64,000 nucleotides of DNA from Winogradskyella sp. (GTDB lineage: Bacteria > Bacteroidota > Bacteroidia > Flavobacteriales > Flavobacteriaceae): the NCBI RefSeq assembly GCF_028282165.1, contig NZ_JANQIM010000037.1, forward strand, positions 33,982 to 97,981. Direction: 5' to 3'. Shown here piece by piece: positions 14,695-30,668 of the stretch (the first letter of the stretch is position 1; every line of letters starts with the position of its first letter). The position numbers and the translations under genes are program-made. Below the pieces are notes generated by a model. That model was not told the DNA's origin and searched no databases. It saw only the letters and a list, made by a program, of their open reading frames with translations.

Positions 14695-15378
14695 TCAATG
14701 ATAGCCATTAAAGTAACCGTACAACTGATATACAAATAACCCTATCCCTGCTAGTACCAGATACCAATTGACCGCTTTGTAAAACGCTGGAAACTGTTTA
14801 TGTTTTCTCGAAAGTGTAATTATGAAAACAATAGGAATCAACGCCAGTACCTGCCCGACTTCTACACCAAGATTAAAGCATAGGATTTTTACTAGAAACT
14901 GTTCCGTTCCAATATCAAAGGACTGTAAACGGGTGGACAGGCCAAAGCCATGAATCAATCCGAAAAGACCTACCATAAGCAGTAAATTGGGTGATTTTAC
15001 CTTCAGTTTTTCAAATCCACCTAAATTTTCAAAGCCCTTATATAACACACTCAGGGCAATAACCGCATCTACTAAATGTTCATTTGCCGTGATTCCGGCA
15101 TAGGTTGCACCAATTAAGGTAATACAATGCCCTATTGTAAACACGGTAATGAATTTTAAGATGTCTATAAAATTGTTCAGGTAGAATATAACACCTGTTA
15201 GAAAAAGCAAATGGTCATAGCCTGTAAGCATATGTGTGGCACCTACACGAATGTAAGCCCACAAACCACCGTTACGCAAAAGTTCCTGATCAGCACTTGT
15301 TACATCATGTGCAAACCCTAAAAGCGGAACGAAAATTAATAATAGAAATAGTGCCTGCCTAAAATGTTGATGTTTCAT
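14695..15378 (-). CDS. HupE/UreJ family metal (Ni/Co-type) transporter
   Basis: 227 aa with a signal peptide ending AHD, 6 TM segments, and GYDHLLF and HGFGLS motifs typical of HupE/UreJ. Its start overlaps the stop of the upstream gene, suggesting translational coupling. Confidence 0.75.
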   Translation of the reverse strand: MKHQHFRQALFLLLIFVPLLGFAHDVTSADQELLRNGGLWAYIRVGATHMLTGYDHLLFLTGVIFYLNNFIDILKFITVFTIGHCITLIGATYAGITANEHLVDAVIALSVLYKGFENLGGFEKLKVKSPNLLLMVGLFGLIHGFGLSTRLQSFDIGTEQFLVKILCFNLGVEVGQVLALIPIVFIITLSRKHKQFPAFYKAVNWYLVLAGIGLFVYQLYGYFNGYH

Positions 15379-16712
15379 TAACTCTTTTTTCTAAAGACTA
15401 CGAATAACAACGCTATAATAAGTACGCTACCTAATATAAAAATCCATGTAGGGATTCCATCCTCGTGATCATGATCATGTGTATGCGTACTATCATCATG
15501 TTTGTGGGTCACCTCAAACGTCAATGTTGCCCATTTAGAGCGATGCGTTAATTCATCACTATCCGTAACACTAACCATATGAATGGTTCGTAAGTAGTAA
15601 ATACCGTCTTCTGGTAGATTTACAGAAACAATGCCTTGGTCATTGGTCCGTAACTGCTGACCACTGGTATGTGAATGGTCTTTTTCTGGCTTTGATTTGT
15701 CAGTATGGCTATGCGCACCGTCACCGTGCTTGTGTTTATGGGAGTGCTTTTTGCCATCATGCTCATTACTGTGCTCACCATCATCATGCTTATGCTCGTG
15801 GGAATGTTTTTTTCCTTCGTGCTCATGCTCATGGCTGTGCTCACCGTCACCGTGCTTGTGTTCATGGGAGTGCTTTTTCCCATCATGCTCATGACTATGC
15901 TTACCATCATCATGCTTATGCTCGTGGGAATGTTTTTTTCCTTCGTGTTTGTGCTCATCATGGTGATGTTCACCTTCATCATGCTTATGTTTTTTATCAC
16001 CATGACTATGGCTGTGACCATGACCATGATCATGATCATGGATTACTTTGATATAATCCGCATAAACGAGTTGATTGGCTAAAGGTGCTCCATCTAACAA
16101 TAACTGCACTTCCAACTTATCACCAGTATACTTTTCATAAGGATTTGCTAATGTCACAAACTCAATAGGATAGCCCAAAACCGTTTTCCAATCGTCTGTT
16201 TTTACATCACCCACTTGATAGATCGCTTTTACATGCTTTTCATAACGCTCTATAGCATCTTGATCCAATAAGTCATTATCCGTGCGGTATTCGAGCATAT
16301 CTAAAACACCATCGTGTTTAAGGTAGTTGTTAAACTTTTCGGCGGTGAGTTCTATATTTCTGGCTTTGGTTGAGACACCTGCTACATAAGTTGCGGCTTC
16401 AATAGGCGTAAATTTAAATTGTGTAATGGTGGTGTCCTTATCTGTCCATTGACTTGCATCTACAGTTAATCGGTTTCCCTGATATAAAATAGAAGCATCT
16501 TGCATACGATCGCGCGCAATAATATTTTCACTATTTTCAAAAGTCCCATTGTATAGGCTTAAGGTCGCTTCTTGATTAGGTTTCAAGAAATAGGTGTCCA
16601 TTTTTATATACAGGTCGTGACTGCATAATAGAATGACAGCGAGGAGTAAGTAAAAAGGCCTAAAAACCCTGTATTTTAAGCTTTTTGTGATTGTTCTTCT
16701 TATTAAATTCAT
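15378..16712 (-). CDS. DUF4198-like periplasmic metal-uptake protein with a large His-rich insert and C-terminal TM anchor
   Basis: 444 aa. The N-terminal SHDLYIK...LSLYNGTFE block is like the DUF4198/NikM-type domain. About 120 aa of H/K/D/E/G repeats follow, then a C-terminal THTHDHDHEDG segment and a TM helix. It is co-transcribed with HupE/UreJ. Confidence 0.7.
   Translation of the reverse strand: MNLIRRTITKSLKYRVFRPFYLLLAVILLCSHDLYIKMDTYFLKPNQEATLSLYNGTFENSENIIARDRMQDASILYQGNRLTVDASQWTDKDTTITQFKFTPIEAATYVAGVSTKARNIELTAEKFNNYLKHDGVLDMLEYRTDNDLLDQDAIERYEKHVKAIYQVGDVKTDDWKTVLGYPIEFVTLANPYEKYTGDKLEVQLLLDGAPLANQLVYADYIKVIHDHDHGHGHSHSHGDKKHKHDEGEHHHDEHKHEGKKHSHEHKHDDGKHSHEHDGKKHSHEHKHGDGEHSHEHEHEGKKHSHEHKHDDGEHSNEHDGKKHSHKHKHGDGAHSHTDKSKPEKDHSHTSGQQLRTNDQGIVSVNLPEDGIYYLRTIHMVSVTDSDELTHRSKWATLTFEVTHKHDDSTHTHDHDHEDGIPTWIFILGSVLIIALLFVVFRKKS
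15716..15967. repeat. 126-nt tandem duplication (2 copies, each built of two ~60-66-nt sub-repeats) encoding His-rich peptide repeats
   Basis: caccgtcaccgtgcttgtgtt... recurs at 15716 and 15842 (126 nt = 42 codons apart). It encodes GKKHSHEHKH(D/G)DG(K/E)HSHEH units. The wider His-rich coding tract spans about 15668-16039. Confidence 0.85.
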
Positions 16713-16974
16713 GCGTTTTTTGTTGATAGTTCTTTTTTAATGTATAAATGACTCATAAAAATCCATTTAAATTGGTTTTATCCGTCTAAAAGCGAAGTTA
16801 ATCTTTTCGTCTTAAGAAATCAACATAAAAAACTATGGGAATTTAGAGCTACAAGCTCCAACCAGCAAAGATTGTGGAAGGCTTAATCATAAAGAAAATG
16901 CTAACGCCTCTATTATGAGAAAATTGGATGTTACAAAAAGCACAGAACCTTATTAGAGACCAAGCTTTTTCTAT

Positions 16975-18543
16975 TTAATTTTCCTTTTCTGCCTTTTTCA
17001 ACTGATCAATTTTATTCTTGGCCTCTTTGCAATTTGGATCAATATCTAATGCCATTTGATAATAACGAATAGCATTATTGTAGTTTTCGGGTGTAAAGTC
17101 TACATAATAATTTCCTAATTCATAAAATGCTTTTGCAGATTGTGGGTTTTCCCTAGAGTTGATCCACAATAGAATACCTGTTTCCCTAGCACTTTTGGCC
17201 TCTTTTATATTAAAATCTCCTAAAGCAATATCTAGAAGTTCTTCTTCATCAAAAAGGGATAGTTTTTTGGTTGAATTAATTACATACTCGTAGTAATTAT
17301 TAATCGCCCCTATAAAATTACGTTTCTGTAAAAGCTTTGTAAATACATTGTTTTTTTCAGAATACTTATCGGTCTTTTTTGTAAAATAAATGGCTTCATC
17401 AAAATCATTAGTCTTTTTAGTTTGCTTTTGGAGTGATTTTAAAAGCGCAGGGTTATTCTTCAAAGTTTTATCCAAAAAAGCTTTAGAGAACTGACATAGC
17501 AATCCATAACTTGCTTCTATCTCGGCACCTTTACGTTTGTAAAATTCAACCAAATCAGGAGGAGAAGGCCTATCCATAGTCATGATAGCATCCGAGTTAA
17601 AGTTGCGATGCCCCATTTTTTGAAACTTTAGTAAGTAGCGTTCTGAATTTCCTTCTTTAAAAAAATTAAAATTTTGGTGATCTCCCCATGCCAACGTGTA
17701 TAGAAAAGGAATTTTTAATTCTTTACCACTATAGCCTTGAAAATTATCTCTGCCCATTCCGTCTTCATAACTAATCGTACCATCAAAACTGATAAAGGCA
17801 TCAAATGAATCGGGTTTTTTTACACTGGTTACAATGGCAGATGCCAATCCGCCCCAACTGTAACCAATCAATCCAACCTTATTAGACTTGGTATATGAAG
17901 TTTTTACTGTATCTAGAAAATTTCTTGTCCAAACAAGATCTTCTACGGCCGTTTTTAATCCTTCCAAATCATATGTCATATTGGGACCTTTGCCATTGGA
18001 TGGCATAGAAAAAATAACATATCCGTGACTGGCTAAATATTCAAATAAAATGGAATTTTCATAAATACTTCCTCCCAATCCTGGAGCATAAACGATTACA
18101 GGAAAATCGCCAACCGTTGGTTTTGCATCATTGTGCGCTAAAGTGAGATGTTCAAAATCTTTTGTAATGCTCTTTTCACTCCCACCCTTTTTTATTGCAG
18201 AATTCCTAAAATGATCGATAAAAGCCTTTTCTAACGATTTGTTGTTTCCAGAACCTCCGCCTAAGGAGTCTTCATAAGCTCTGGTAGCGATATATGCTTT
18301 GTATTTAATTGCTTGGTCTACTGACGTTACATCAGCAGGATACCAAACGCCTAAGTTCATAGGTCTTTCACTATCTCCCATTTTTCTGTTCGTATCGCTT
18401 TCAGTTAGCACTTTAAAGCCTACATTAAATTTTCCTTTTGACAAACCAGCCCAATCGTGTAAGGATTGGGAACTTAGGTGATTCGTAATTAAGATCGTTC
18501 CAAGGAGTAAAATCCATAATTTTATTCTGTGGTGGTGTTTCAT
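16975..18543 (-). CDS. secreted alpha/beta hydrolase (PAF-acetylhydrolase/dienelactone-hydrolase-like) with C-terminal TPR repeats
   Basis: 522 aa with a signal peptide, the nucleophile elbow GYSWGG, and a C-terminal TPR-like region (AFYELGNYYVDF..., AIRYYQMALDIDPN). Confidence 0.65.
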   Translation of the reverse strand: MKHHHRIKLWILLLGTILITNHLSSQSLHDWAGLSKGKFNVGFKVLTESDTNRKMGDSERPMNLGVWYPADVTSVDQAIKYKAYIATRAYEDSLGGGSGNNKSLEKAFIDHFRNSAIKKGGSEKSITKDFEHLTLAHNDAKPTVGDFPVIVYAPGLGGSIYENSILFEYLASHGYVIFSMPSNGKGPNMTYDLEGLKTAVEDLVWTRNFLDTVKTSYTKSNKVGLIGYSWGGLASAIVTSVKKPDSFDAFISFDGTISYEDGMGRDNFQGYSGKELKIPFLYTLAWGDHQNFNFFKEGNSERYLLKFQKMGHRNFNSDAIMTMDRPSPPDLVEFYKRKGAEIEASYGLLCQFSKAFLDKTLKNNPALLKSLQKQTKKTNDFDEAIYFTKKTDKYSEKNNVFTKLLQKRNFIGAINNYYEYVINSTKKLSLFDEEELLDIALGDFNIKEAKSARETGILLWINSRENPQSAKAFYELGNYYVDFTPENYNNAIRYYQMALDIDPNCKEAKNKIDQLKKAEKEN

Positions 18544-19000
18544 ACTCGCTGTTTTAGTTAAATTTTATTCTTATCACATACTCTATTTCTTAAAGCGTGA
18601 AAGAATTTATTCAAAGCCACTTTTTACCTTCTGAAAGGAGATATTATCTAATTTTTCAAAAAAAATTAATATCGAGGACTAGTTTCCATAAAAATAGATT
18701 TTTACAACTTACAGAAGTTCCGAAATTATAAAGTCCGACATTTTTATTTTTTAGATTCTATAGAACTATATATTCCTCCTATTCCAGGTGTTAGTTTCGT
18801 TGCTTTAGTTAGCCTGCTATTTATATAAGACTAAAAAAAACGATTTTGTCGCATTTAATTTTCATCTTTCCATCTAATTACATACCCTAAAGAAAAGATC
18901 ATCTGCAATGAGAGAATATTTATGGATATCTTCAGTTATATATCGATAAAAAACAATGGTGTTAGATTTTTCTCTTTTGTGTGGTTGAAATTACTTTCAA

Positions 19001-19008
19001 TATATTTG
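19001..19008 (+). promoter_or_regulatory. candidate -7 element TATATTTG
   Basis: Exact TAnnTTTG match, about 66 nt upstream of the ATG at 19075. Confidence 0.35.
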
Positions 19009-19074
19009 AGATAACTACGTTAGTACGAATCGTAAAAACTCTAATCAAAACTATTGTAAAACCAAAGACTACTA

Positions 19075-20181
19075 ATGGATATTAAGGTCAATTTGTACAA
19101 TATACTTATTGCATTCGGGATGCTTCAAAGCTTTATATTTGGCTTTTACCTTAGTTTTAGAAGTAAATTAAAAGGCGCTCAATTTTATCTCGGAATTACC
19201 GTTATATTTCTATCTTCTTATATATTTTGGGTACTGAAATATGACTTTGGATTTGAAAAGTATTTTCCTCATTTACGGCTTTTCCCTATTTTCTTTATTA
19301 GTGGTATTGGCCCGGCTTTTTATATCTATTTAAGATTTCTTTTCAATAAACCCATCTCTGGTTTTAAGATAAGACTGTTTTTTATCCCATTACTAATTCA
19401 ATTTGTTTACTACATTTCAACCATTGCAATTTATTGGGTTAATCATTGGGACTATAGAACATTTAATACGTTTGAAAGTACATGGGTGTTTAATTCAGCT
19501 TCTGTTGAACATTTATACGGACTTAGTTTTTTTGGGATCTTTCTATATAAGAGCTATAGATTAGTATTAAAATCCCATATGCTCTATGCTACAAATAAGA
19601 TTAAAACCATTCTCATATGCTTTATAATACTTTGGAGTATATGGGTTGTGTATTCCTTTTTTGACACCCTCTATTATGATTTTGCTTTCCCTCCTTCGGG
19701 ATTTTATCTTTTCTATATTTTATTTACCGCATTGACCTATGCTATCGGTTTTTTTGGATTTAAAATAAATAATGATACGTTTTTGCGTGTTGGGTTTAAA
19801 AGTGAAGCTAAAACAGAAGGAAAAACTGCCAATAAAGAGATGACTGACATATTTCAGAATATATTGGAATTAATGGCAACTTCCAAACCCTACCTAGATC
19901 CAAGTATCAATCTTACAAGTTTTTCAGAACAACTAAAATTGCATCCAAATAAAGTTTCTGCAGCTATTAACATTATGAGCAAAAGTTCTTTTAGAGATTT
20001 TATAAATACATACAGAATAAATGAGTTTATATCTAATAGTAGCACATATGATTTTGAAACAAAAACAATTTTAGGTTTGGCTTATGAAGTAGGCTTTAAC
20101 TCTAAATCTTCTTTTAATAGAGCGTTTAAAAAATTTACTAATTCATCACCAGTTGAATATTTACAGAAAATAAAAGAGTAA
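19075..20181 (+). CDS. membrane-anchored AraC-family transcriptional regulator
   Basis: 368 aa with about 7 N-terminal TM helices and a C-terminal HTH_AraC domain (LAYEVGFNSKSSFNRAFKKFT). Confidence 0.8.
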   Translation: MDIKVNLYNILIAFGMLQSFIFGFYLSFRSKLKGAQFYLGITVIFLSSYIFWVLKYDFGFEKYFPHLRLFPIFFISGIGPAFYIYLRFLFNKPISGFKIRLFFIPLLIQFVYYISTIAIYWVNHWDYRTFNTFESTWVFNSASVEHLYGLSFFGIFLYKSYRLVLKSHMLYATNKIKTILICFIILWSIWVVYSFFDTLYYDFAFPPSGFYLFYILFTALTYAIGFFGFKINNDTFLRVGFKSEAKTEGKTANKEMTDIFQNILELMATSKPYLDPSINLTSFSEQLKLHPNKVSAAINIMSKSSFRDFINTYRINEFISNSSTYDFETKTILGLAYEVGFNSKSSFNRAFKKFTNSSPVEYLQKIKE

Positions 20182-20278
20182 GTAGGTGTCAAAATGTAAA
20201 ACGCTACTTTGAAATGGCATAAAACAGTTACACTTGCAGCGTGATTATTTTAATAAATTAAAACTTTTGATTTTTATT

Positions 20279-21799
20279 ATGAGAAATACCGCTCTTAATG
20301 TAATTGCTTTACTTTTTCTAGTAAGCTGCACATCGTGTAAAGAATACAACAATGCAAGTGGAACAACTTCAAAATTAGATTCCATCTTAAATGTTTTACA
20401 TCAAAAAGAACAGTTTAATGGAGGGGTATTAATTGCAAAAGGAAATGAAGTGATCTACAAAAACACTTTCGGATATTCAACATTTGAAGATAAAAAAGCG
20501 TTAAACCTTAATACCGTATTTCAAACGGCATCTGTTTCAAAAACCTTTACAGCTGTAGCTGTTTTGCAACTGATTGAACAGGGCAGACTACAATTAGATG
20601 ATAAGTTAGTTGATTTTTTTCCGGAATTGCCTTATCCAGATGTTACTATACGCAATTTGCTTTCCCATACTTCTGGTCTGTATCCATACAACCCTTTATT
20701 TGTTAAACATTGGGATCATAATAAAATTGCTGAGAATAAAGACATTCTTACAATCTATCGAGAGCAAAAACCAAAGTCATTTTTTTCTCCTGATGAGGGC
20801 TATTCGTATAGTAATATTGGTTATGTCTTCTTAGCCTGCATCGTTGAGAACGTTAGTAAAGTCTCTTTTCAAGACTATCTAAAACAAGAAATCTTCGGTC
20901 CGTTAAAAATGGAAAATTCTCAGATCTATACTTTACTAAATAAAAACAGGATCGAAAACTTCGCTAAGGAGCATCTACTTGATCCCATTTCTGGGGCGTA
21001 TAAAAGTCCACTGGAATTGGATTATCAAAAGGAAGTTTATTATTTGAGTGGTAAGGTAGGAGATGACAAAGTAGCGTCTACATTAGATGATTTGTGGAAA
21101 TGGAATAGAGCATTGTTTACACATAAGATTTTACCCAAAGGAAAACTAGAAAAAGTATTTGCTTCCAGTATCACCCATATACCTGATTCTTTAAGACACT
21201 CACCATTTGACTATGGATTAGGGTTTCAGTTAGAACACCACGAAGATTTTGGTAAAATCATATATCACAATGGTGGTGAACCCGGTCTAAGGGCGAGGTT
21301 TTTGTATTACTCCGATCATGATGTTTCCCTAATTATGTACGATAATGCACACTCGCAATATATCAACAAGGTTAGGGACATCATTATTGGAACCTTGTTA
21401 GATAAAGAAATAGTGTTCCCAAAAAAATCACTGGCAACAGAATTGTATAAAGTTGCTAGATATGGTAACGACGAAGTACATAAGACTATTGAGAAGTATA
21501 AAGATTCACCGTCTTATTATTTAAAAGAAAACGAGATCAACCGTTTGGCAGGAGTCTTTTGGACAGCGGAAGATTATGAAAATGGATTAACTATACTAAG
21601 GTTAAATACAGAGCTATTTCCTGAATCAATTAATGCCCAATTTTATCTTGGAGAAGGATACATGGAAAATGGGGATATGGAAAAAGCAAAAAAACATTTT
21701 CAGATATCAAAAGATATCATGCTGGCACGCCCTAAAGAAAAACAAAATGCAAACTACTTAAAGTATCTAGATCAACTTCTTAATGCGAAAGAACAGTAA
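20279..21799 (+). CDS. serine hydrolase (beta-lactamase/PBP4-fold) lipoprotein with C-terminal TPR-like region
   Basis: The track ORF starts at a TTG at 20234; the ATG at 20279 gives MRNTALNVIALLFLVSC (lipobox). It has the SxxK motif ASVSKTF and YSNIGY. Confidence 0.8.
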   Translation: MRNTALNVIALLFLVSCTSCKEYNNASGTTSKLDSILNVLHQKEQFNGGVLIAKGNEVIYKNTFGYSTFEDKKALNLNTVFQTASVSKTFTAVAVLQLIEQGRLQLDDKLVDFFPELPYPDVTIRNLLSHTSGLYPYNPLFVKHWDHNKIAENKDILTIYREQKPKSFFSPDEGYSYSNIGYVFLACIVENVSKVSFQDYLKQEIFGPLKMENSQIYTLLNKNRIENFAKEHLLDPISGAYKSPLELDYQKEVYYLSGKVGDDKVASTLDDLWKWNRALFTHKILPKGKLEKVFASSITHIPDSLRHSPFDYGLGFQLEHHEDFGKIIYHNGGEPGLRARFLYYSDHDVSLIMYDNAHSQYINKVRDIIIGTLLDKEIVFPKKSLATELYKVARYGNDEVHKTIEKYKDSPSYYLKENEINRLAGVFWTAEDYENGLTILRLNTELFPESINAQFYLGEGYMENGDMEKAKKHFQISKDIMLARPKEKQNANYLKYLDQLLNAKEQ

Positions 21800-21808
21800 T
21801 TAAGACGT

Positions 21809-23257
21809 TTAAAACAGGAAATCTTTTAACATGGCAAACAATTTGTTTGCCTGATCATCAGAATTAGATAATATCACTATTGTGACGTCTATCGTAGGAA
21901 AATGGTAGGCAATACTGTTAAATCCCGGTATGCTTCCCGAATGTCCCCAATACGATTGATCTTTATATGTATTGACTTCAAACCCATTGTTATACCCTTT
22001 CGTTTCAATAAAACTAAAGTGTCTAACGGTTCTTTGACGCATCATATTGGGAGTTGTTTCCTTAGACATTAAACCACTGGCGACGAACTTTATAAAGTTG
22101 AAAAGATCATCAGATACTGTATACATCCCTCCTGCTGGTGAAGACACTGTATTAGAAAAAAAGTCATTGGGAAATGTGGCTTCACTTAGTCTCTTCTGTT
22201 GAAACTCTACGGATGCCTTTAAGCTATCTACAACAGGATAAACCCTCGTATATCCAGTGGCTTTTTTACTTGTGCTTTGATACTTATTAACTGCTAAGGT
22301 TTTGGACATATCGGCCGGTCTAAAGATATTTTTTTGAAGAACGCTTTGATAGGAATCCCCAGTTACTTGTTCTATGATGAGTCCCAACAAGAGAAATCCA
22401 GTGTTACTGTAGAAATAAGCCGTTTCCTCAAGTTTTTTGACTGACAAATCCGCGTAATCCAACAAGTCATGCCAAGATTGTAAATCTGCTTTTGAGCTTA
22501 ACCAAAATTCACTTGAGAAAAAAGTCTTTAAACCAGAGGTATGATTCAATAAATCGGCTATCGTTATTGTAGGATCTAATGACAGATTTAAATAGTTCAC
22601 AACCGGATCGGAGAGCTTTAATTTACCCTGTGCTTCCAGTATTCTAATAGCAACACTTGTAAACATTTTTGAGGATGAAGCCATATTAAACTTTGTGGAT
22701 GCGTCTACAGGGATTTGAAATGATTGATTAGCAATTCCGATGTTTTTTTGAAAAAAAGATTGACGAGAGTCACCGATTGTTACCGACATTGAAAAGCCCT
22801 CTATATTCAAACTGTCAAGTACCCGATTTAAATAGTTGACGATTTCCTGCTGCGATTTCCTATTAGGATTTTTAGAGTTCCAAGTGATTTCCGTTTCACT
22901 CCAACCTCTTATTTTACCTGATGGAAGCGTATTAATAATCAGTCCCAATGAATTTTTTGGATTATGCAGTAAACCAGCAATCTTCTGCCCATCATTGTAT
23001 TGGATATCGATTTTGAATGGCTTAGGCAGATTTTCATGTAATTGCATACTCATGTTTAGAACCTTGTCAACAGTCATAAAAGAGATGAAGTCATCAGCAA
23101 ACTCATCCTTGACAAACTTTTGAATAGTACTTGTTTTACCACTTTTAACAGAAGTGATCCAATCTATAAATAAGGTTTCTAGAGTTTCTTTTTTTGTTTG
23201 TGAATGGCTAGTAAGGCAAATGGTTAGACCTATGACAAGCAAGACTATGTTTTTCAT
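21809..23257 (-). CDS. serine hydrolase (beta-lactamase fold), secreted
   Basis: 482 aa with a signal peptide, the SxxK motif ASSSKMF, YSNTGF and HSGSIPGF. Confidence 0.8.
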   Translation of the reverse strand: MKNIVLLVIGLTICLTSHSQTKKETLETLFIDWITSVKSGKTSTIQKFVKDEFADDFISFMTVDKVLNMSMQLHENLPKPFKIDIQYNDGQKIAGLLHNPKNSLGLIINTLPSGKIRGWSETEITWNSKNPNRKSQQEIVNYLNRVLDSLNIEGFSMSVTIGDSRQSFFQKNIGIANQSFQIPVDASTKFNMASSSKMFTSVAIRILEAQGKLKLSDPVVNYLNLSLDPTITIADLLNHTSGLKTFFSSEFWLSSKADLQSWHDLLDYADLSVKKLEETAYFYSNTGFLLLGLIIEQVTGDSYQSVLQKNIFRPADMSKTLAVNKYQSTSKKATGYTRVYPVVDSLKASVEFQQKRLSEATFPNDFFSNTVSSPAGGMYTVSDDLFNFIKFVASGLMSKETTPNMMRQRTVRHFSFIETKGYNNGFEVNTYKDQSYWGHSGSIPGFNSIAYHFPTIDVTIVILSNSDDQANKLFAMLKDFLF

Positions 23258-23439
23258 TGGATAGCTATAAAATTTGAGTCCTAATAATTGGGATGCTACT
23301 ATTAAGACTCAACTTTTAGAAAGTGTCTCATTTTTTTTTAGACTATTTATTGTTTGAAGACAGGCTTTTTCTCTTATGGATAGAAATAGTGTTGGGAAGG
23401 TTGTGGGTTAAGTTAATTTTAAACGTGTGGAAGCGGTTA

Positions 23440-23458
23440 CTTATAGGCATTATTACCT
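23440..23458 (-). repeat. attC-like half-site F (cttataggc-att-attacct); partner arm not confidently found
   Basis: It closely resembles the right half of site D (cttatagcc-att-gttggtc). The reverse complement of its box (aggtaat) matches the left box of site A (aggtaaa) at 6/7 positions. It overlaps the stop codon of the 320-aa gene. Confidence 0.4.
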
Positions 23459-24415
23459 TGCGTTTTTCTTTCCTGGTGTTATCACAACGATATTCAATTC
23501 TGTGTTGTCTATTTTAATATCTTTTGTTTCAAGACCAATTAAATGTCTATCGTCTTTTGGTGGTATGAACAGTATTCCTTTTGTAATTCCACTTGCAGAA
23601 AGATAAGTTATCAATTGATTTAATCCACTGTCAATAGCTCTTCTATCTTCAGTTCTCTTGAGTTCAATAATAATACTATCCGTTTTCGATTTGACGATAA
23701 AGTCTGGTCTCAACTTTAATCTCTCTCCTGCTTGCAAAAGAGGTTCAACTTGTATATCAAAATCACTGTCAGCTGCTTTGATATATGCTTCTATTTTACC
23801 AATCAGTTCGTATTCATTCCTTATATCTCTAATCTCTGGATTATCATGTGAAAATTTCGCAAGTATTCCAGAGAGTTTTAATAAGTTGTCTTTTTTGGAG
23901 TAGTTCTTAATCTCACTCTTAATGTCTTTATTTGATTGTTTTAACTTCTTTGATTCAGCCTGAAAAGCCAACTTTTCGATTATTTGATTCAATAACAGAT
24001 GAATAAAAGCTGAGACACTTATTATTGCTAAAAAGGATTCGCTATGACTGAAAAAAAGTTTATGGTCGTGCGTTGATGGGTTTCTCCACTTTTGTCGATA
24101 GTTGGTAAATTGTTCTAAGACACGTTCTTTAAAAATTTCATTATCGGTTAAGTATTTTTCGATTTTGAATGGTGTCAATTCACTTGTATCAGTCTTTCCT
24201 GTTAGATAGACGTATGCTTCTTTGAGCATTCCTTCAAATCCTTGATTTGTTCGATATATAACATCAGTAAAATACGCTTCATCCTGGTGTTCTATTCCTT
24301 TTTCAAGAAGAAATTCAGCACGTTCAATATGTGTTAATACTGAGTTAAGACCAACCAGTTCCTTTCCATTAGAAATCTGCTTAATTTGTTCTTTAACTAA
24401 TTTCAGTATATCCAT
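23453..24415 (-). CDS. two-domain protein: N-terminal helical domain with HEPN-like Rx4H motif + C-terminal PD-(D/E)xK nuclease-like domain
   Basis: 320 aa. WRNPSTHD fits the Rx4-6H HEPN signature within a helical ~140-aa domain. The C-terminus YELIGKIEAY...LRPDFIVKS..SIIIELKR...QLITYL fits the E...D...ExK...Q PD-(D/E)xK layout. Confidence 0.5.
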   Translation of the reverse strand: MDILKLVKEQIKQISNGKELVGLNSVLTHIERAEFLLEKGIEHQDEAYFTDVIYRTNQGFEGMLKEAYVYLTGKTDTSELTPFKIEKYLTDNEIFKERVLEQFTNYRQKWRNPSTHDHKLFFSHSESFLAIISVSAFIHLLLNQIIEKLAFQAESKKLKQSNKDIKSEIKNYSKKDNLLKLSGILAKFSHDNPEIRDIRNEYELIGKIEAYIKAADSDFDIQVEPLLQAGERLKLRPDFIVKSKTDSIIIELKRTEDRRAIDSGLNQLITYLSASGITKGILFIPPKDDRHLIGLETKDIKIDNTELNIVVITPGKKNAR

Positions 24416-24438
24416 ATTCTTTATGTGTTCTTAATGCA

Positions 24439-24516
24439 AGGTAAAGGTTCAGGCTATGATTTCGTTGTGACACGAGTTCAGCGAACTGGCGTTAGCAATT
24501 ATAGCCATCGTTGGGC
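24439..24516 (-). repeat. attC-like site A
   Basis: Plus strand reads aggtaaa|ggttca|ggctatgat...attatagcc|atc|gttgggc. Its arms are homologous to those of site D. Confidence 0.55.
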
Positions 24517-24525
24517 ATAGTAATT

Positions 24526-25176
24526 TTACTCTGGTTTGAAATCTTTAAACTCTTGGTTAACTTTTCTTTCTTTTAAAGATAATTCTGTCGATAGATTGGT
24601 TAATAATTCATTGTATGCTTCTCGAATATTCATTCTTGAATTCAAATCATTACTCATATTTTTGACAAATGCATCATCCCATGACTTAGACCAGCTAACT
24701 TTTCCGATATAAAATTTTTTATGTGTCCAAAACTCTGATTTTATTTTTGCATCTGCTCCCATACCGTTATAAGTTTCAAAAGCATTTCTCATGAAGTTCT
24801 CATAAGACTCAAAAAATTTCTTGTTAAATAATGGTTCATTGGAATACATAATCTCATCACATAGTCTTTTATTCATAATTATTTTTTCCGGACTAAGTTC
24901 TTTCCATTTCCCAACATAGTAGATATAACTAAATATTTCATTAATTGGGATTTTTATTTTTTTGTAAATTTCAAATCTATGTTCGTATATTCTCTTATTA
25001 TTCTCCATAATAGATTTGTTTTGACGGATAATGTTTTCCTGATATTGCTGTGATTTTTTTAGATCATTATTTATAATATACGTTAATATAAAAAGACTAA
25101 TAGGTACGAATAAGCTCACTATTAATTTTGCGATTTCCAGACTATTCCAAACTTTTTTATCACTTTTTCCATTCAT
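24526..25176 (-). CDS. hypothetical protein with one N-terminal TM helix (cassette-borne)
   Basis: 216-aa ORF with an IAKLIVSLFVPISLFILTYII TM segment. I recognise no family. Confidence 0.5.
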   Translation of the reverse strand: MNGKSDKKVWNSLEIAKLIVSLFVPISLFILTYIINNDLKKSQQYQENIIRQNKSIMENNKRIYEHRFEIYKKIKIPINEIFSYIYYVGKWKELSPEKIIMNKRLCDEIMYSNEPLFNKKFFESYENFMRNAFETYNGMGADAKIKSEFWTHKKFYIGKVSWSKSWDDAFVKNMSNDLNSRMNIREAYNELLTNLSTELSLKERKVNQEFKDFKPE

Positions 25177-25196
25177 TTTTTCTTAATTTTTATTAT

Positions 25197-25350
25197 GCTC
25201 AACGATCTCGTACATAAGTAGTTATAGACTTCTACTCACAAACCTTTAGTCTCGATAGCTATCGGGATCGGGATTGCACTGACATTTTAATTTATGTTTA
25301 TACTATCGTTTTAGCACTTAAACTGCTATTATTAATACGCATTGTTAGGG
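25197..25350 (-). repeat. attC-like site B (long, ~154 nt)
   Basis: Plus strand reads gctcaac|gatctc|gtacataag...ttaatacgc|att|gttaggg. Arm pairing is weaker than in sites C and D. Confidence 0.5.
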
Positions 25351-25357
25351 ATAGTAG

Positions 25358-27160
25358 TTATTCTGTAATATAAGTTCCAAAAATTTCTGTCATTTTGTTT
25401 CTCCAATTTTCTGGAATATCTTCCCAACTTTCTCCCCATTTTTGAGTTTGTTCAAAGGCTTTGAAAGGCTTTTCATAGGTTGCTTCATATCCGATTTCAT
25501 CCTCCACATTTTCATACATTTCAACTATCCTTCCATTAGTTCCAACCGCATCTTTAATTGGTTGATTAAATTTTACAGCACCCTCAATTCCATTATCTCT
25601 GTCGTGAACGACTATTGGTTTTATTCCCATAGATGTGAGATATTTTACCAAACCAATAATCGCTGCTTTTCCTCTTGCTTTAAGGACTTCAAAATTTGAT
25701 ATAATTCTCAAATATTTTTCTTTAGGTAATCTTACTAACGATTCTCTAATAAGAATATCTTCTGTATCACCCTCAATTATGATTATATTGTTTGTATAAA
25801 ATGCTCTCGATATATAATCATCAATTTTTAATATCATTTTTACATATGATTTATCATCCTCTTGTAGTTCTAAAAAGGCATCGGATACTGAAAATGTGCT
25901 ACATCTAACAGACTTTTTATTTCTTATCAGTCGATTTAATACTTGTTTTGGTTTTCTTGAAATATCAATCAAATATGGTGAATGGGTTGATGCAACAATT
26001 TGAGAATTTGAACTACTCAATTCGTAAATTGTATCTCTCATTTGATTAGCTGCACTTGGATGTAAATAAATTTCTGGTTCTTCAAAGCTAATTATTAAAG
26101 AACGATTATGTTCATCTTCTTTATCTGAAAGCCATTTTTGTCTAAATCGTAACATACCAAAAACAGCAGCTCTAACCATTCCTGTTCCTTGATTTTCTAC
26201 TGAAGTTTTTATATTGCTAGACATTTCAATATTAAAACTTGGTTTTAGTGCTTTATTTGGATCACTTAAATCAGTGGTAGCGTGTAATTGAGACTCTGGA
26301 AAAATTCTAGTCAAGACTAAATTTAATTCCGTCATCATTTTCCCAAACTCCGATGTAACATCCTCAGGGTCTAATTCTTTAGAAAGCTTCTCTAAATACT
26401 CTTGAGCATTTTTAAAATTATCAGAATTTTCCCTTACTATTTGAAAAAGTTCGTTCAAGGTTTTACCTAAAACACCTGATGTTCCACCTTGGATTTCGTT
26501 TATTGAAGTATCAACAGGTATCAATAAAAATCTTGGTAGCATTTTAAGAACATTTCCAGGAATACCACCAGGATTTTGAAACCAAGTATCTTCTTCTATA
26601 ATATCCCAAATTTCATCAAGTTGCTCAAGTTTTTCTAGCGCTGCTTTACTTTTTCCAATATTTTTATCTAGTTCTGGAAAGTAATCAGAAATGATTTCTT
26701 CTTGAATTCCTTTGTTTATATAATCTTGTGGTTTTTTACAATCTTTAAAATCAGCTTTTATATTACGTATTTTAGATTTAAACTCTATTACCACATCTTT
26801 TCCTAATTCATACGTTTTTCTATAAGTAACTGAAAGTCCAGTTTCCGTATCACTATCATACTCAAAAATACGTCCTTTAAACCCTCTCCAAGTCTTTGAC
26901 TCCTCAGGTAAGTTTCTAAACTCGCCTTCAAGAACTACTTTAGTGGTCTGTGGTTTAGTTTCTCCAGTTTCTTCGTCAACAACCGAATAGTAATCTGAAC
27001 TTGGTAGTGTTTTTGTTGCGGAAAGTAAAACACCGATAGCTTTCAGTATTGAGCTTTTTCCAGAATTATTTTGTCCAATTAAAAATGTGGCGTCTTCAAG
27101 ATAAATTTCAATATCCTCAAGTCGCTTAAATCCATTTATTTTTAATCTATGTAGTTTCAT
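25358..27160 (-). CDS. OLD-family nuclease (ABC-type ATPase + C-terminal Toprim domain)
   Basis: 600 aa. The N-terminus is MKLHRLKINGFKRLEDIEI...IGQNNSGKSSIL (Walker A). Walker B/D-loop is LIISFEEPEIYLHP, and the H-loop is ASTHSP. The Toprim domain has IIIIEGDTEDIL (Glu) and VVHDRDNG (DxD). Confidence 0.8.
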   Translation of the reverse strand: MKLHRLKINGFKRLEDIEIYLEDATFLIGQNNSGKSSILKAIGVLLSATKTLPSSDYYSVVDEETGETKPQTTKVVLEGEFRNLPEESKTWRGFKGRIFEYDSDTETGLSVTYRKTYELGKDVVIEFKSKIRNIKADFKDCKKPQDYINKGIQEEIISDYFPELDKNIGKSKAALEKLEQLDEIWDIIEEDTWFQNPGGIPGNVLKMLPRFLLIPVDTSINEIQGGTSGVLGKTLNELFQIVRENSDNFKNAQEYLEKLSKELDPEDVTSEFGKMMTELNLVLTRIFPESQLHATTDLSDPNKALKPSFNIEMSSNIKTSVENQGTGMVRAAVFGMLRFRQKWLSDKEDEHNRSLIISFEEPEIYLHPSAANQMRDTIYELSSSNSQIVASTHSPYLIDISRKPKQVLNRLIRNKKSVRCSTFSVSDAFLELQEDDKSYVKMILKIDDYISRAFYTNNIIIIEGDTEDILIRESLVRLPKEKYLRIISNFEVLKARGKAAIIGLVKYLTSMGIKPIVVHDRDNGIEGAVKFNQPIKDAVGTNGRIVEMYENVEDEIGYEATYEKPFKAFEQTQKWGESWEDIPENWRNKMTEIFGTYITE

Positions 27161-27169
27161 ACTTATTGT

Positions 27170-27281
27170 CTCTAACGGTGAAGTATAACTATCAGTTTTC
27201 GGTTTAGTACTGACTTTAGTAATTCCGAGTGGGTTCGGACGTAGACGAATGCACCGTAACTGCAGTTATACATTGTTGTGC
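27170..27281 (-). repeat. attC-like site C
   Basis: Plus strand reads ctctaac|ggtgaa|gtataact...agttatac|att|gttgtgc, with perfect 8-bp arms. It overlaps the stop codon of the upstream cassette ORF. Confidence 0.6.
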
Positions 27282-28231
27282 GTAGTTTTTTTATCCAAAT
27301 AATATACAATTCCTTGTCTTGGAAGAATTCCGCCTTCAGCTTCATAAATGCTTCTATCATCATCTTTTACTTTTAGTTCTAAGCTTGGAGAAAGCATGCT
27401 AAAAATTTCAAAATTGTATTCAGGTGGATAGGTTGCGATAATCTTCAAATTAATTACAGGAAGCCAAGTAAAAAACTCATCTTGTAGTCTTTTAGAATGT
27501 TCTATTTTGTAAATAATAGTGTAGTCCACATAGTTGTTTGGCGGGATTTCCAAGTCATAATGAATTTTATGCATTTTATCATCAATTTTTTCAATTTCGA
27601 CACCTTTATTTTCCTCAGGCTTGTTATTTTTTTCATAATAAACAGTCTGTTTACCTTTGATTGAACAAATCACTTTTTCAATTGATGTGTCACTTGGATT
27701 GTGATTTGCTATTACTGCGGAAATAGGATTCTTTATAATTTGGTTTGTATTATTGTAAGACTTCATAATTGAAGTTAATCTACAAGTAATATTTTCATTA
27801 TCGTCAACACTAAAGTCTAAAATCCATTCAGCATCTTTTCTAATAATTTCCGCATTAATTATTTCGTCTTTTACTGTTTGAAACAACTCTTTTGGAATTA
27901 TTTTTTGGAATAAAGCATTATGTATGTCTTTGTAGAGATTATCTTTTAATGATTCCAATTCTGCTTTTTTGGACTTAAGTTGTTCTTCTTTTAATTTTGA
28001 AGATATGAATGTTGATATAAAAATTGCGAATGCTAATGAAAAAGATAGATAAACGCCTATATCATAGAACCTCTTCAAAATAGGTTTGTCAATTATCAAC
28101 GAATTCTCTTTAATTCCATCAGAATTCAAATAAGATATTTCTTTGTAAACGAGACTTTGGTTGGAAGATAAAACTTCCAAAAAGATTCCTGTTATTATTA
28201 AGACTATGATTATTAAGACTATTCTTTTCAT
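27266..28231 (-). CDS. 2-TM + coiled-coil + beta-rich C-domain protein, unknown function (cassette-borne)
   Basis: The track ORF starts at a GTG at 28252, inside the attC-like box; the ATG at 28231 (MKRIVLIIIVLIITGIF...) is more likely. It has a second TM segment (IGVYLSFSLAFAIFISTFI), then a KLKEEQLKSKKAELESLKDNL coiled coil. Confidence 0.55.
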   Translation of the reverse strand: MKRIVLIIIVLIITGIFLEVLSSNQSLVYKEISYLNSDGIKENSLIIDKPILKRFYDIGVYLSFSLAFAIFISTFISSKLKEEQLKSKKAELESLKDNLYKDIHNALFQKIIPKELFQTVKDEIINAEIIRKDAEWILDFSVDDNENITCRLTSIMKSYNNTNQIIKNPISAVIANHNPSDTSIEKVICSIKGKQTVYYEKNNKPEENKGVEIEKIDDKMHKIHYDLEIPPNNYVDYTIIYKIEHSKRLQDEFFTWLPVINLKIIATYPPEYNFEIFSMLSPSLELKVKDDDRSIYEAEGGILPRQGIVYYLDKKTTHNNV

Positions 28232-28248
28232 TTCGTTTGTCAAATTAC

Positions 28249-28345
28249 GCACAACGGTCTTGGCTATGAGTAGTTGTGTAGGTGATCACGTAATTTCGCA
28301 AGTAGCACCCAAGTTGTAGCAATTACTTATAGCCATTGTTGGTCT
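28249..28345 (-). repeat. attC-like site D
   Basis: Plus strand reads gcacaac|ggtctt|ggctatgag...cttatagcc|att|gttggtc. The box gcacaac is the exact reverse complement of the right box of site C (gttgtgc). Confidence 0.6.
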
Positions 28346-28356
28346 TTCGTTATTTA

Positions 28357-28824
28357 TTAACTAGCGCATCCAGCAGAACAAGAGTTTTCACTACAAGAAG
28401 ATGGAATACAAGTTTTACATCCACAAGTCCCGCAACTACTAGTCCAGCTACTTCCATCAGGTTTTGTTCCTGAACAGGAAGTTTTACAACAAGCTTTTGC
28501 AGAAGCATCTTCTCCTTTGACGCCAACTTTCATAGTAGACATTTTAACTTCAATGATTTCAGTTCCAATTTTTAAAGGAATTCTGAATCTAGGTTGGTCA
28601 ATGAATAATTGTTTAGACTTCTCTTCAGTAGTCCACTCGTAGATTTCTCCCGCAATATCATCTTTTTTTATCAAGTAATAATGTTTCTTGTCCGTTTCGG
28701 CTGGATATAATCTAAAATAGTCTTCGTTTGAATCTGACGAGATAAAACCATCTACTTTAAAGATGTCTAATTCATTGTCCATTTCTCTAAATGACTTTGT
28801 TTCAAGAATTTCATTAATTTCCAT
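28357..28824 (-). CDS. hypothetical protein with a C-terminal Cys/Ser/Thr/Gly-rich tail (10 Cys in the last 44 aa)
   Basis: 155 aa with an acidic ~110-aa N-domain and no signal peptide. The tail is ACCKTSCSGTKPDGSSWTSSCGTCGCKTCIPSSCSENSCSAGCAS. Confidence 0.55.
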   Translation of the reverse strand: MEINEILETKSFREMDNELDIFKVDGFISSDSNEDYFRLYPAETDKKHYYLIKKDDIAGEIYEWTTEEKSKQLFIDQPRFRIPLKIGTEIIEVKMSTMKVGVKGEDASAKACCKTSCSGTKPDGSSWTSSCGTCGCKTCIPSSCSENSCSAGCAS

Positions 28825-28874
28825 TTTGGTTGATTTTAAAGATTAATATTCATGATTTTGTAGTTTATAATGAA

Positions 28875-28936
28875 CGTCAACTCGTAAATATATCTGTATT
28901 TTGATGCCAGATTTACAACCCAGATATAAGTTCAAA
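28875..28936 (-). repeat. possible degenerate attC-like site E / array end
   Basis: cgtcaac|tcgtaa|atatatctg...cagatata|a|gttcaaa. The spacing deviates from the other sites, and its box matches the prediction from site D (gaccaac) at only 4/7 positions. Confidence 0.25.
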
Positions 28937-29052
28937 ACCCTTATATCTACAAAGGAATTTACAAATAGTGGTTATGCATTTTACTAAATACACTAACTCA
29001 ACTTATACATATTACAAGTTGTAGCTAAGTTAGCTTCTTGAAATACCAAAGT

Positions 29053-29076
29053 CAATACGTAGAACTACGTATTTTT
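29053..29076. repeat. conserved palindrome-containing motif caaTACGTAGAACTACGTAttttt, copy 2 of 2
   Basis: 19 nt are identical to 1318-1336. It lies about 200 nt upstream of fumC, between the cassette array and the core genes. Confidence 0.6.
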
Positions 29077-29238
29077 ACATGTACTAACCCTAGATCCCGT
29101 TTTTTGAGCGGGATACGCCTACCTGTCAGCATAGACAGGTTTAACTTACTATGTTAATTGCGTTGACATGCAACTTTTTTAAAATAGGGTTTCACTCATT
29201 ATTATGACATTCTTCAGCTTTTAAACGTTCTAAATCTG

Positions 29239-29246
29239 TAATTTTG
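29239..29246 (+). promoter_or_regulatory. candidate -7 element TAATTTTG for fumC
   Basis: Exact TAnnTTTG match, ending 24 nt before the ATG at 29271. Confidence 0.45.
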
Positions 29247-29270
29247 TAGTTCCTTAAAAACATACACATC

Positions 29271-30668
29271 ATGTCATACAGAATAGAAAAAGATACTATG
29301 GGCGAGGTGAAAGTCCCTGCCGATAAACTTTGGGGCGCACAAACCGAGCGTTCGCGTAATAATTTTAAAATCGGAGCACCAGCTTCCATGCCTTTAGAGG
29401 TGGTTTACGGCTTTGCCTACCTTAAAAAAGCAGCCGCTTATACCAATTGCGATTTAGGCGTTTTAGATAAAGACAAACGCGATCTCATCGCCCAAGTCTG
29501 TGATGAAATTTTGGAGGGTCAGCACGACAATCAATTCCCCTTGGTGATTTGGCAAACCGGTTCTGGGACGCAAAGCAATATGAACGTCAATGAAGTCATT
29601 GCCAATAGAGCGCATCAAATGGCTGGTAAGGTGATTGGTGAAGGTGATAAAACGATTCAGCCAAATGATGATGTCAACAAATCCCAATCATCTAACGACA
29701 CCTTTCCTACTGGGATGCATATCGCCGCCTACAAAAAAGTGGTAGAAACGACCATTCCAGGTGTGATACAATTAAGAAATACATTGCATAAAAAATCTTT
29801 GGAATTTAAGGATTGTGTAAAGATAGGGCGTACGCACCTTATGGATGCTACACCTTTAACCTTAGGTCAGGAGTTTTCGGGTTATGTATCACAATTAGAT
29901 CACGGTCTTAAAGCCTTGGAAAATACCTTGTCGCATTTAAGCGAACTGGCTCTAGGTGGCACGGCTGTGGGTACAGGACTCAACACGCCTGCTGGTTACG
30001 ATGTTTTGGTCGCCAAATACATTGCCGATTTTACGGGCTTGCCTTTTGTGACTGCAGAAAACAAATTCGAAGCCTTAGCCGCCCATGATGCGATAGTAGA
30101 AACCCATGGTGCTTTAAAACAATTAGCTGTATCCTTAAACAAAATAGCCAATGACATTAGAATGATGGCCTCTGGACCGCGTTCTGGTATTGGTGAAATT
30201 ATTATTCCTGCCAACGAGCCAGGAAGCTCCATTATGCCAGGAAAAGTGAATCCGACCCAATGTGAAGCCTTGACTATGGTTTGCGCCCAAGTGATGGGTA
30301 ACGATGTTGCCATCAGTATTGGTGGTACCCAAGGGCACTATGAGCTTAATGTCTTTAAACCCGTAATGGCCGCTAATATTCTGCAATCCGCCCAACTGCT
30401 TGGTGATGCTTGTGTAAGCTTTGAGGAAAACTGTGCAATAGGTATTGAACCTAACCATGCGGTGATTAAGCAATTACTTAATAACTCATTGATGTTAGTT
30501 ACCGCATTAAATACTAAAATCGGCTATTATAAAGCCGCTGAAATCGCCAATACAGCCCATAAAAATGGTACGACTTTAAAAGAAGAAGCCATTAATTTGG
30601 GTTATGTGACGGCAGAGGAATATGACGAATGGGTAAAACCAGAGGATATGGTAGGCAGTCTAAAATAA
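29271..30668 (+). CDS. fumC: class II fumarate hydratase
   Basis: 465 aa with [28 protein letters not shown], the [16 protein letters not shown] signature, and a length typical of FumC. Confidence 0.95.

Follow-up and report, generated by a model that had tools for sequence, protein, structure and literature searches.

Integrons have been treated as essentially proteobacterial systems that are defined by the integrase IntI with its additional domain, an IntI-specific feature (intI_Cterm) reportedly described by Messier and Roy in 2001. This domain is cited in PMC9668308 as defining IntI and as being required for its activity. Clusters of attC sites without a recombinase are common (PMC4889954; definitions of IntegronFinder, Cury et al. 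2016), and In0 elements (IntI genes with no attC detected) have been reported in Bacteroidetes, where surveys give almost nothing (PMC9024848). The integrons of Treponema have an 'inverted' integrase, intI being oriented as the cassettes are (PMC3607928). In the current analysis we have considered a 64-kb window (the whole stretch of 64,000 nucleotides taken from contig NZ_JANQIM010000037.1) of the chromosome of a marine Winogradskyella. Five minus-strand open reading frames (ORFs) of 155, 328/304, 600, 216 and 320 residues, all in one orientation at 23440-28824, form five single-gene cassettes punctuated by foldable sites.

This region (23440-28824) is probably a five-cassette array, without a recombinase of its own, of an integron-like gene-capture system in Bacteroidota, and is best filed as Bacteroidota-specific and integron-like, outside the classical integron family. 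The literature on integrons in Flavobacteriaceae, Persicobacter and Cytophagales yielded no description of such arrays. The array and its sister arrays resemble integrons such as the Vibrio superintegron, and the clusters of attC sites lacking integron-integrases (CALINs), in many respects. The cassettes are tandem, co-oriented, mostly of a single ORF and promoterless-looking; the sites are of the form R''(nnnnAAC)-L''...L'-R'(GTTnnnn) with a variable loop; the R' of each site complements the R'' of the next; and the sites of one lineage are homogeneous in sequence. The likeness extends to duplicated cassettes in a giant array, that of the Persicobacter psychrovividus plasmid pPP2, to a cargo of toxin-antitoxin and defence genes and to recombinase-less clusters scattered in genomes.

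Organisation of the sites in the array

Four complete sites (D, C, B and A) and a half-site, F, are located between the five genes. Read in gene orientation, each complete site comprises a 7-mer ending in AAC, the triplet AAT (GAT in A), an arm, a variable loop, the complementary arm, a spacer of 6 nucleotides (nt) ending in CC or TC, and a 7-mer that begins with GTT. The sites start 0-12 nt past a stop codon and end 9-25 nt ahead of the next start codon. All the site strings quoted in the original prediction are present at their positions, and its description of individually bounded cassettes with an R''/L''/L'/R' layout is supported.

Site D (28344..28249, minus strand) reads GACCAAC-AAT-GGCTATAAG...CTCATAGCC-AAGACC-GTTGTGC, with R'' at 28338-28344, L'' (GGCTATAAG) at 28326-28334, L' (CTCATAGCC) at 28262-28270 and R' (GTTGTGC) at 28249-28255. 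A covariance model constructed from 18 diverse sites, referred to as R3, assigns it a score of 73.5 bits (E 7e-13), and its fold has an energy of -11.2 kcal/mol on the bottom (plus) strand versus -7.4 on the top strand. Site C (27281..27170, minus; GCACAAC-AAT-GTATAACT...AGTTATAC-TTCACC-GTTAGAG) overlaps the stop codon of cassette 2, scores 44.5 bits with R3 and has a z of -2.7 when the plus strand is folded as single-stranded DNA. Close relatives of this site are present in a metagenomic array, L125. Site B is 154 nt long (25350..25197, minus; CCCTAAC-AAT-GCGTATTAA...CTTATGTAC-GAGATC-GTTGAGC) and has a degenerate, bulged stem. It is outside the training set of R3, which scores it at 23.5 bits (E 0.04); its simple arms of 9 nt pair poorly and are not part of the minimum-energy fold, and its ends do pair once bulges are allowed. 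Site A, of 78 nt (24516..24439, minus; GCCCAAC-GAT-GGCTATAAT...ATCATAGCC-TGAACC-TTTACCT), has a degenerate R' and scores 40 bits. The half-site F (23458..23440, minus; AGGTAAT-AAT-GCCTATAAG) is devoid of L' and R' and represents the truncated 3' end of the array; it shares 79% identity over 28 nt with the matching end of site D. The ends are common among the sites, the repeats D5 and D9 being 75-79% identical.

AAC is conserved in all four complete sites and GTT in three, site A having TTT, and the stem is present in D, C and A and bulged in B. The four sites and the half-site lie within 4.9 kb on the minus strand with no integrase near them; under the rule of at least two sites within 4 kb on one strand they count as a recombinase-less cluster on the condition that one takes them to be attC-like.

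Complementarity of the boxes across the cassettes

When the 3' box of each site is aligned with the following site's 5' box, read as its reverse complement, 7, 6, 6 and 6 of the 7 positions agree over the four junctions. This amounts to 25 of 28 box positions and to 14 of the 16 variable ones (binomial P = 8.5e-7). The match extends a further 7 nt outward (21/28, P = 2e-7), and the observed pairing of boxes is the unique best among 120 possible assignments. The two boxes of one and the same site match at 2-5 of 7 positions (3 of 16 variable positions). The A-to-F junction is especially telling: TTTACCT and AGGTAAT are both off-consensus and are still complementary at 6 of 7 positions. Upstream of cassette 1 no GTTGGTC-like partner box has been found, and no 5' boundary is recognised for this cassette.

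The claim that the boxes co-vary across genes and not within sites thus stands for the window, and it extends to 56 adjacent pairs of sites on about 25 independent contigs, 44 of which are exact (mean 6.6/7). Within single sites of the family, 5 of 77 pairs of boxes are exact and the mean is 4.6/7. L125 encodes six cassettes in a row with differing boxes and a perfect complement at each junction (GTTGTGT/ACACAAC, GTTGTAC/GTACAAC, GTTGCCA/TGGCAAC, GTTGTAG/CTACAAC, GTTGGCA/TGCCAAC and GTTGTGC/GCACAAC). Class 1 cassettes taken as controls keep the same rule, for example at the junctions aadA2/cmlA1, estX/psp and aac(6')-29a/blaVIM-2, and the cassette logic of the window is therefore that of integron cassettes.

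Generic intergenic hairpins, either terminators or repetitive extragenic palindromes (REP), with boxes matching by coincidence, would also be placed at the 3' ends of genes, as terminators are. Loose patterns of this type are indeed frequent by chance: a permissive AAC-stem-GTT pattern has 514 matches in 1.65 Mb, so that stems by themselves carry no significance. What does carry it is the sharing of end sequences, the location of the sites and the covariation. A box pairing of P ~1e-6 in the window, together with the exact junctions elsewhere, is not expected of such hairpins; the sites have no T-run and no RAYT gene is present. Copies of the sites are also confined to the array, as the original prediction had held in setting aside a scattered family of REP or miniature inverted-repeat elements. 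Within the 64 kb, R3 matches sites A-D and nothing else. A second covariance model, R2, was made from the four trimmed window sites; it bridges long loops poorly and found nothing new, with no copies outside the array in the window and none in 1.57 Mb around fumC of 80 other Flavobacteriaceae. Rfam scans of window positions 22000-30000 gave no match. The explanation by generic hairpins is effectively refuted.

Occurrence and folding of the site family in Bacteroidota

A strict pattern derived from sites D and A has identified 32 marine metagenome contigs (TARA, JGI, ENA), against a chance expectation of about 6 by our own estimate. They hold about 27 distinct sites with the consensus TGCCAAC-AAT-GGCTATAA...TCATAGCC-GGAAC-GTTnnnn, and R3 detects 73 sites at E < 1e-4 on the metagenome contigs. 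Viral contigs scanned for the site pattern gave no match.

Over 65 distinct sites, 85% of the stem cells are paired, compensatory changes are seen in 13 of the 16 stem pairs, and the covariation score of the stem is 0.443, compared to 0.105 for shuffled and at most 0.074 for slid alignments. Two non-pairs are conserved, reading A:C on the top strand in 51 and 56 of the 65 sites and therefore G:T on the bottom strand, and folding with DNA energy parameters favours the bottom strand in 55 of the 65. The consensus stem has no conserved bulges. The spacers of the sites had been thought to leave room for the extrahelical bases that are usual in attC sites; these bases are absent, and the strand asymmetry provided by the G:T pairs would fill their role in classical attC sites.

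One sister array, of four cassettes without a recombinase (L110/L131), is located between dnaE and DUF6252/rpsP and carries cargo tagged for the type IX secretion system (T9SS). Other sister cassettes code for beta-lactamase-family hydrolases, HupE, a DndB-like protein, a phospholipase D (PLD) nuclease, an N6 methyltransferase, leucine-rich repeat proteins and peptidases. A PARIS-like pair of AAA_15 and DUF4435 genes is seen just beyond the last detected site of L119. The 3' end of another metagenomic array (L132, 755-4873) adjoins RteC, DUF3987 and DUF6371 genes, which we take to be typical of integrative mobilizable elements of Bacteroidota.

The family is also encoded on plasmids. A blastn search with a site of 131 nt matched NZ_AP025294.1 (pPP2; 16 places, up to 97% identity) and NZ_AP025293.1 of Persicobacter psychrovividus and a plasmid of Flagellimonas marinaquae, and a site of 73 nt matched a Fulvitalea plasmid. 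The pPP2 array comprises co-oriented small genes, with duplicated proteins, and at least 70 R3 sites. It extends from at most 313 kb to 403 kb, that is over at least 90 kb.

The Flagellimonas marinaquae plasmid (NZ_CP092416.1, 9219-15066), which is mobilizable, has a dihydrofolate reductase (DHFR)-family gene between two sites of the window family. This gene adjoins erm(F), a 272-residue 'xerA / integron integrase' and a Tn3 transposase. The unit may be a mobile, resistance-type version of the Bacteroidota cassette system.

Recombinases at the head of sister arrays

A tyrosine recombinase of 379 residues, transcribed in the direction of the cassettes, is encoded at the upstream end of the pPP2 array; its gene spans the origin of the record and is for that reason absent from the gene table. 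The protein scores 226 bits against NF040815 ('XerA / integron integrase', cut-off 220), 199.5 bits against XerD (cut-off 329.6) and 198 bits, in two pieces, against the integron integrase model TIGR02249 (cut-off 265). Its Pfam domains are Phage_int_SAM_4 and Phage_integrase. Alignment with IntI1 and XerD reveals the full RKHRHY catalytic set without the insertion of about 38 residues of IntI1, and an N-terminal extension of about 95-100 residues that is common to the homologues. These homologues are numerous in Bacteroidota and in marine metagenomes. The RefSeq product name, 'site-specific tyrosine recombinase/integron integrase', indicates that the annotators had noticed the resemblance to integrons.

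Sites of the same family adjoin an Xer-like recombinase in pPP2, in Persicobacter diffluens and in contigs from TARA, and a related site type of about 170 nt does so in Paracrocinitomix. Three TARA/ENA contigs share an identical recombinase and upstream flank and differ in the downstream genes; R3 sites follow the recombinase in two of them, and the third stops about 400 nt past the gene. The recombinase of Paracrocinitomix mangrovi is followed by a gap of 69 nt that ends in GTTAGCA, complementary to the TGCTAAC at the end of the first cassette, and all the later junctions that were read are perfect. Co-oriented small ORFs come after the recombinase in P. diffluens and Paracrocinitomix, and the contig of Sediminitomix flava stops right past the recombinase gene.

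The head recombinase is preceded, in four genera that include P. diffluens, S. flava and P. mangrovi, by a divergent gene for a protein of 130-140 residues with a weak treble-clef (DUF2116) signal (L138 709-1131; L140 9508-9909; L142 9499-9903; L143 9528-9920). It may code for a regulator or a partner of the recombinase. Inserted among the cassettes below the recombinase of P. diffluens (L142, 13894-21149) is also a repeated unit that joins an IS91-like Y2 transposase gene to a split gene for a small tyrosine recombinase; it is present at least twice in full, and a third copy begins.

These associations bear on the alternative of an ordinary cassette array of the integron kind (a CALIN, as IntegronFinder uses the term), whose attC sites would be recombined by a genuine IntI, possessing the additional domain, from elsewhere in the genome. 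The layout, the AAC and GTT triplets, the AAC-AA after R'', the 6-nt 3' spacer and the box rule are all those of extracted class 1 cassettes (GTTGGGC/GCCCAAC, GTTAGCG/CGCTAAC), and both the frequency of recombinase-less attC clusters and the In0 IntI genes of Bacteroidetes cited above would fit. However, the sites differ from those of integrons in their 5' spacer of 3 nt and in having the two conserved A:C (top) or G:T (bottom) mismatches instead of conserved extrahelical bases. A proxy covariance model of ten class 1 attC sites (R1), which is over-fitted and so narrow that it gives a held-out arr-3 attC only 17 bits, does not match sites A-D or about 60 sister sites. The recombinase at every array head that can be read is Xer-like, has the N-terminal extension, lacks the additional domain of IntI and points in the direction of the cassettes; about 0.5 Mb of array-bearing DNA yielded no IntI, and the hosts are Bacteroidota (Flavobacteriia and Cytophagia). 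The direction of the recombinase gene is shared with the 'inverted' integrons of Treponema, whose integrases are, unlike the present ones, bona fide IntI with the additional domain and whose attC sites are found by standard models. An ordinary integron is therefore unlikely, and the original prediction of classical attC sites is not supported as stated.

The scores of the recombinase also raise the question of Xer/dif-type double-stranded sites, with housekeeping XerC/XerD moving the genes as 'dif modules' comparable to the pdif modules known from Acinetobacter plasmids. The core of the enzyme, with its complete catalytic set, is indeed closest to the models of XerD and of the archaeal XerA. 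But Xer acts on short duplex dif-like sites, present once per replicon or flanking modules, and not on long hairpins punctuating gene arrays. The sites considered here are imperfect palindromes of 60-190 nt (78-154 nt in the window) in direct orientation, not alternating 28-bp sites of 11-6-11 architecture. Compensatory changes preserve their hairpin potential while sequence and loop length vary, which argues for a folded substrate. We regard dif modules as very improbable.

Proposed mechanism and state of the Winogradskyella array

The anatomy of the array, the covariation, the spread of the site family and its physical association with a recombinase elsewhere are observed; we infer the strand used, the point of cleavage, the enzyme and any activity of the array in the Winogradskyella genome. 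The cassette unit would begin with TTnnnn and a short leader, continue with one ORF and nnnnAAC-AAT, and close with an imperfect hairpin of 60-190 nt, a spacer of 4-6 nt and G. The site would fold as single-stranded DNA, with a preference for the bottom strand, where both of the conserved mismatches turn into G:T wobbles. Cleavage by a tyrosine recombinase would take place at or beside the G/TT step of the 3' box, and the cassettes would therefore move in and out as units with both their own complementary ends. The enzyme would be an Xer-like recombinase of the NF040815 type of NCBIfam, about 380 residues long, that has about 100 extra residues at the N-terminus and lacks the IntI additional domain. 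As the original prediction had noted for the vicinity of the array, no tyrosine recombinase is found, here across the 64-kb window; the enzyme would therefore act in trans, or the array is a relic.

Several points weigh against the proposal of a five-cassette array of an integron-like system. Besides the absence of a recombinase from the window, none has been found in the 32 metagenome array loci, and the cleavage at G/TT is an analogy with integrons. The recombinase family is very large, and because housekeeping Xer proteins may be among its more than 7,500 clusters (E <= 1e-40), its adjacency to sites in six contexts is suggestive and no proof. Three sites look worn: A has TTT for GTT, the stem of B is degenerate and F is truncated. 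The sole other contig found with the window cassettes is a single Logan assembly, in which the gene order is unchanged.

Some of these points fit a fossil, that is, cassettes which were assembled by the Bacteroidota system and are now immobile in a small genomic island, with the recombinase lost and the sites decaying. The loss of GTT in A, the stem of B, the half-site F, the want of a 5' partner box for cassette 1, the constant gene order, the lack of a recombinase within 64 kb and the location of the array inside a strain-specific insertion of 14.6 kb would all be accounted for. Against this, D and C are intact and score as high as the sites of large arrays, box complementarity is kept even at the degenerate A/F junction, and recombinase-less mini-arrays recur between core genes, as with dnaE and rpsP in L110/L131, which suggests that action in trans is the norm. 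A fossil is thus a possible state of the locus, though a somewhat doubtful one.

Returning to the integron-like system itself, we incline slightly towards a wider proposal, taken as a whole, that Bacteroidota (Flavobacteriia and Cytophagia) have a gene-capture system of their own. An Xer-like, co-oriented recombinase without the IntI domain would head arrays of up to at least 90 kb; G:T wobbles would replace the extrahelical bases; small recombinase-less arrays would be seeded between core genes of marine Flavobacteriaceae; a plasmid version would carry a DHFR-family cassette by erm(F); and the standard tools for integrons would overlook this system or under-call it. If this is true, a second recombinase lineage follows the same cassette logic in a dominant phylum of the ocean, and integron-type capture either arose twice or predates and outranges IntI. 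The roles of the extrahelical bases and of the IntI domain would become testable against a natural system devoid of both. A large pool of cassettes, including defence genes, T9SS-secreted proteins and hydrolases, would have been overlooked by current tools, and the DHFR-family cassette beside erm(F) suggests that this pool could also move resistance genes.

Proteins encoded by the cassettes

The cargo had been described as defence-like. Judged by sequence similarity, this applies to the 600-residue protein, an OLD-family nuclease, which is the only one of the five window proteins that is assignable; the other four have no assignable function. Encoded by cassette 3 (ORF 25358..27160, minus; cassette span about 25203-27175), it is recognised by Pfam (AAA_15, 5.5e-43; OLD-like_TOPRIM, 1.3e-9) and by PADLOC ('Old', 7.9e-63) and has the layout of the OLD family, with an N-terminal ABC-type ATPase and a C-terminal TOPRIM domain. 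As in P2 Old and the class 1 OLD nucleases, an AAA_15/AAA_21 ATPase and an OLD-type TOPRIM are present in one chain. Unlike P2 Old, the gene is carried as an integron-like cassette and not on a prophage, and it has no evident partner gene.

Cassette 1 (ORF 28357..28824, minus) codes for 155 residues with a cysteine-rich C-terminus, for which Pfam, PADLOC and NCBIfam gave no match. The ORF of cassette 2 (27266..28252, minus; cassette span about 27176-28254) codes for a membrane-anchored protein without an assigned function, of 328 residues from a GTG start or 304 from the ATG at 28180. Homologues are limited to P0161 and P0162, about 50% identical and each encoded by a single cassette in arrays on other contigs; we count this as support for the mobility of the cargo. 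The sites flanking these homologues are complementary across the gene at 10 of 10 positions in L096 and, twice, at 8 of 8 in L098.

The homologue in L098-L103 (JGI metagenomes 33000407xx) is flanked by GC-rich repeats, each about 215 nt long (CGCCCAAC-ACCGCGCC...GGCGCC-CTC-GTTGTGTG), that keep the cassette-wise rule. These repeats are another site family, since neither the class 1 proxy nor the Bacteroidota model matches them. At 12590-12797 of L096, a Bacteroidota contig (GCA_040777765.1), a stretch beginning with GTGCGCCCGGCATGGGCAG starts where the R' box of the site is expected and shares 80% identity over 40 nt with the 5' end of the group IIC-attC intron of a class 1 integron (L093). A group IIC-attC intron was considered at this end of L096 and was not retained: the match is limited to these 40 nt, the contig stops about 190 nt further on, and Rfam scans of L096 and L098 gave no match.

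The 216-residue protein of cassette 4 (ORF 24526..25176, minus; cassette span about 24445-25202) has no assigned function and nine homologous protein clusters were found for it. The closest homologue is encoded in Flavobacterium collinsii (L082, 5800-20700) among co-oriented small genes with SIR2, PLD and RAYT/REP elements and a short repeat, cccgctcgt...acgagc. This region was rejected as a sister array, as it looks like a defence island with repeats of another type. Cassette 5 (ORF 23453..24415, minus) codes for 320 residues of a widespread uncharacterised family of 480 representative protein clusters, with a weak C-terminal PD-(D/E)XK-like signal (PDDEXK_3, 3e-4, below the cut-off) and no relative in a sequence search of PDB. 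One homologue, P0010, was rejected as a cassette, its context being a tight operon.

Genomic neighbourhood of the array

The array is flanked on its 3' side by a gene for a beta-lactamase-family serine hydrolase (21809-23257, minus) and on its 5' side by fumC (29271-30668, plus), and its GC content is about 27-34%, compared to 43% in fumC. The fumC gene shares 92-94% identity with that of Winogradskyella species. The distance between a lolD-like gene and fumC is 0.1-4.7 kb in six other Winogradskyella, and the 14.6-kb insertion that includes the array, located between these two genes, is missing from all six. The regions upstream of fumC in 80 Flavobacteriaceae genomes have neither homologues of the cassettes nor sites and thus do not inform on the presence or absence of individual cassettes.

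Between the array and fumC, the 5' flank (28825..29270) has no recombinase, no recognisable attI and no R3 match. It includes, upstream of cassette 1, a perfect hairpin of 9 bp at 28919-28945 (AGATATAAG / CTTATATCT) followed by GTTGTAA, which may be a collapsed remnant of a site, because its arm resembles the L arms of the sites.

The 14.6-kb insertion also carries, in window positions 14695-23257, a HupE/UreJ-like gene, an AraC regulator and three serine-hydrolase-type genes, and the R3 scan shows no sites around the HupE/UreJ-like and serine-hydrolase-type genes. HupE and beta-lactamase-family proteins are also encoded in sister array regions (L129, L107), where the beta-lactamase-family ones are bracketed by sites. 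The same insertion encodes, at 15378-16712, a protein of 444 residues with a long repeat rich in histidine, aspartate and lysine.

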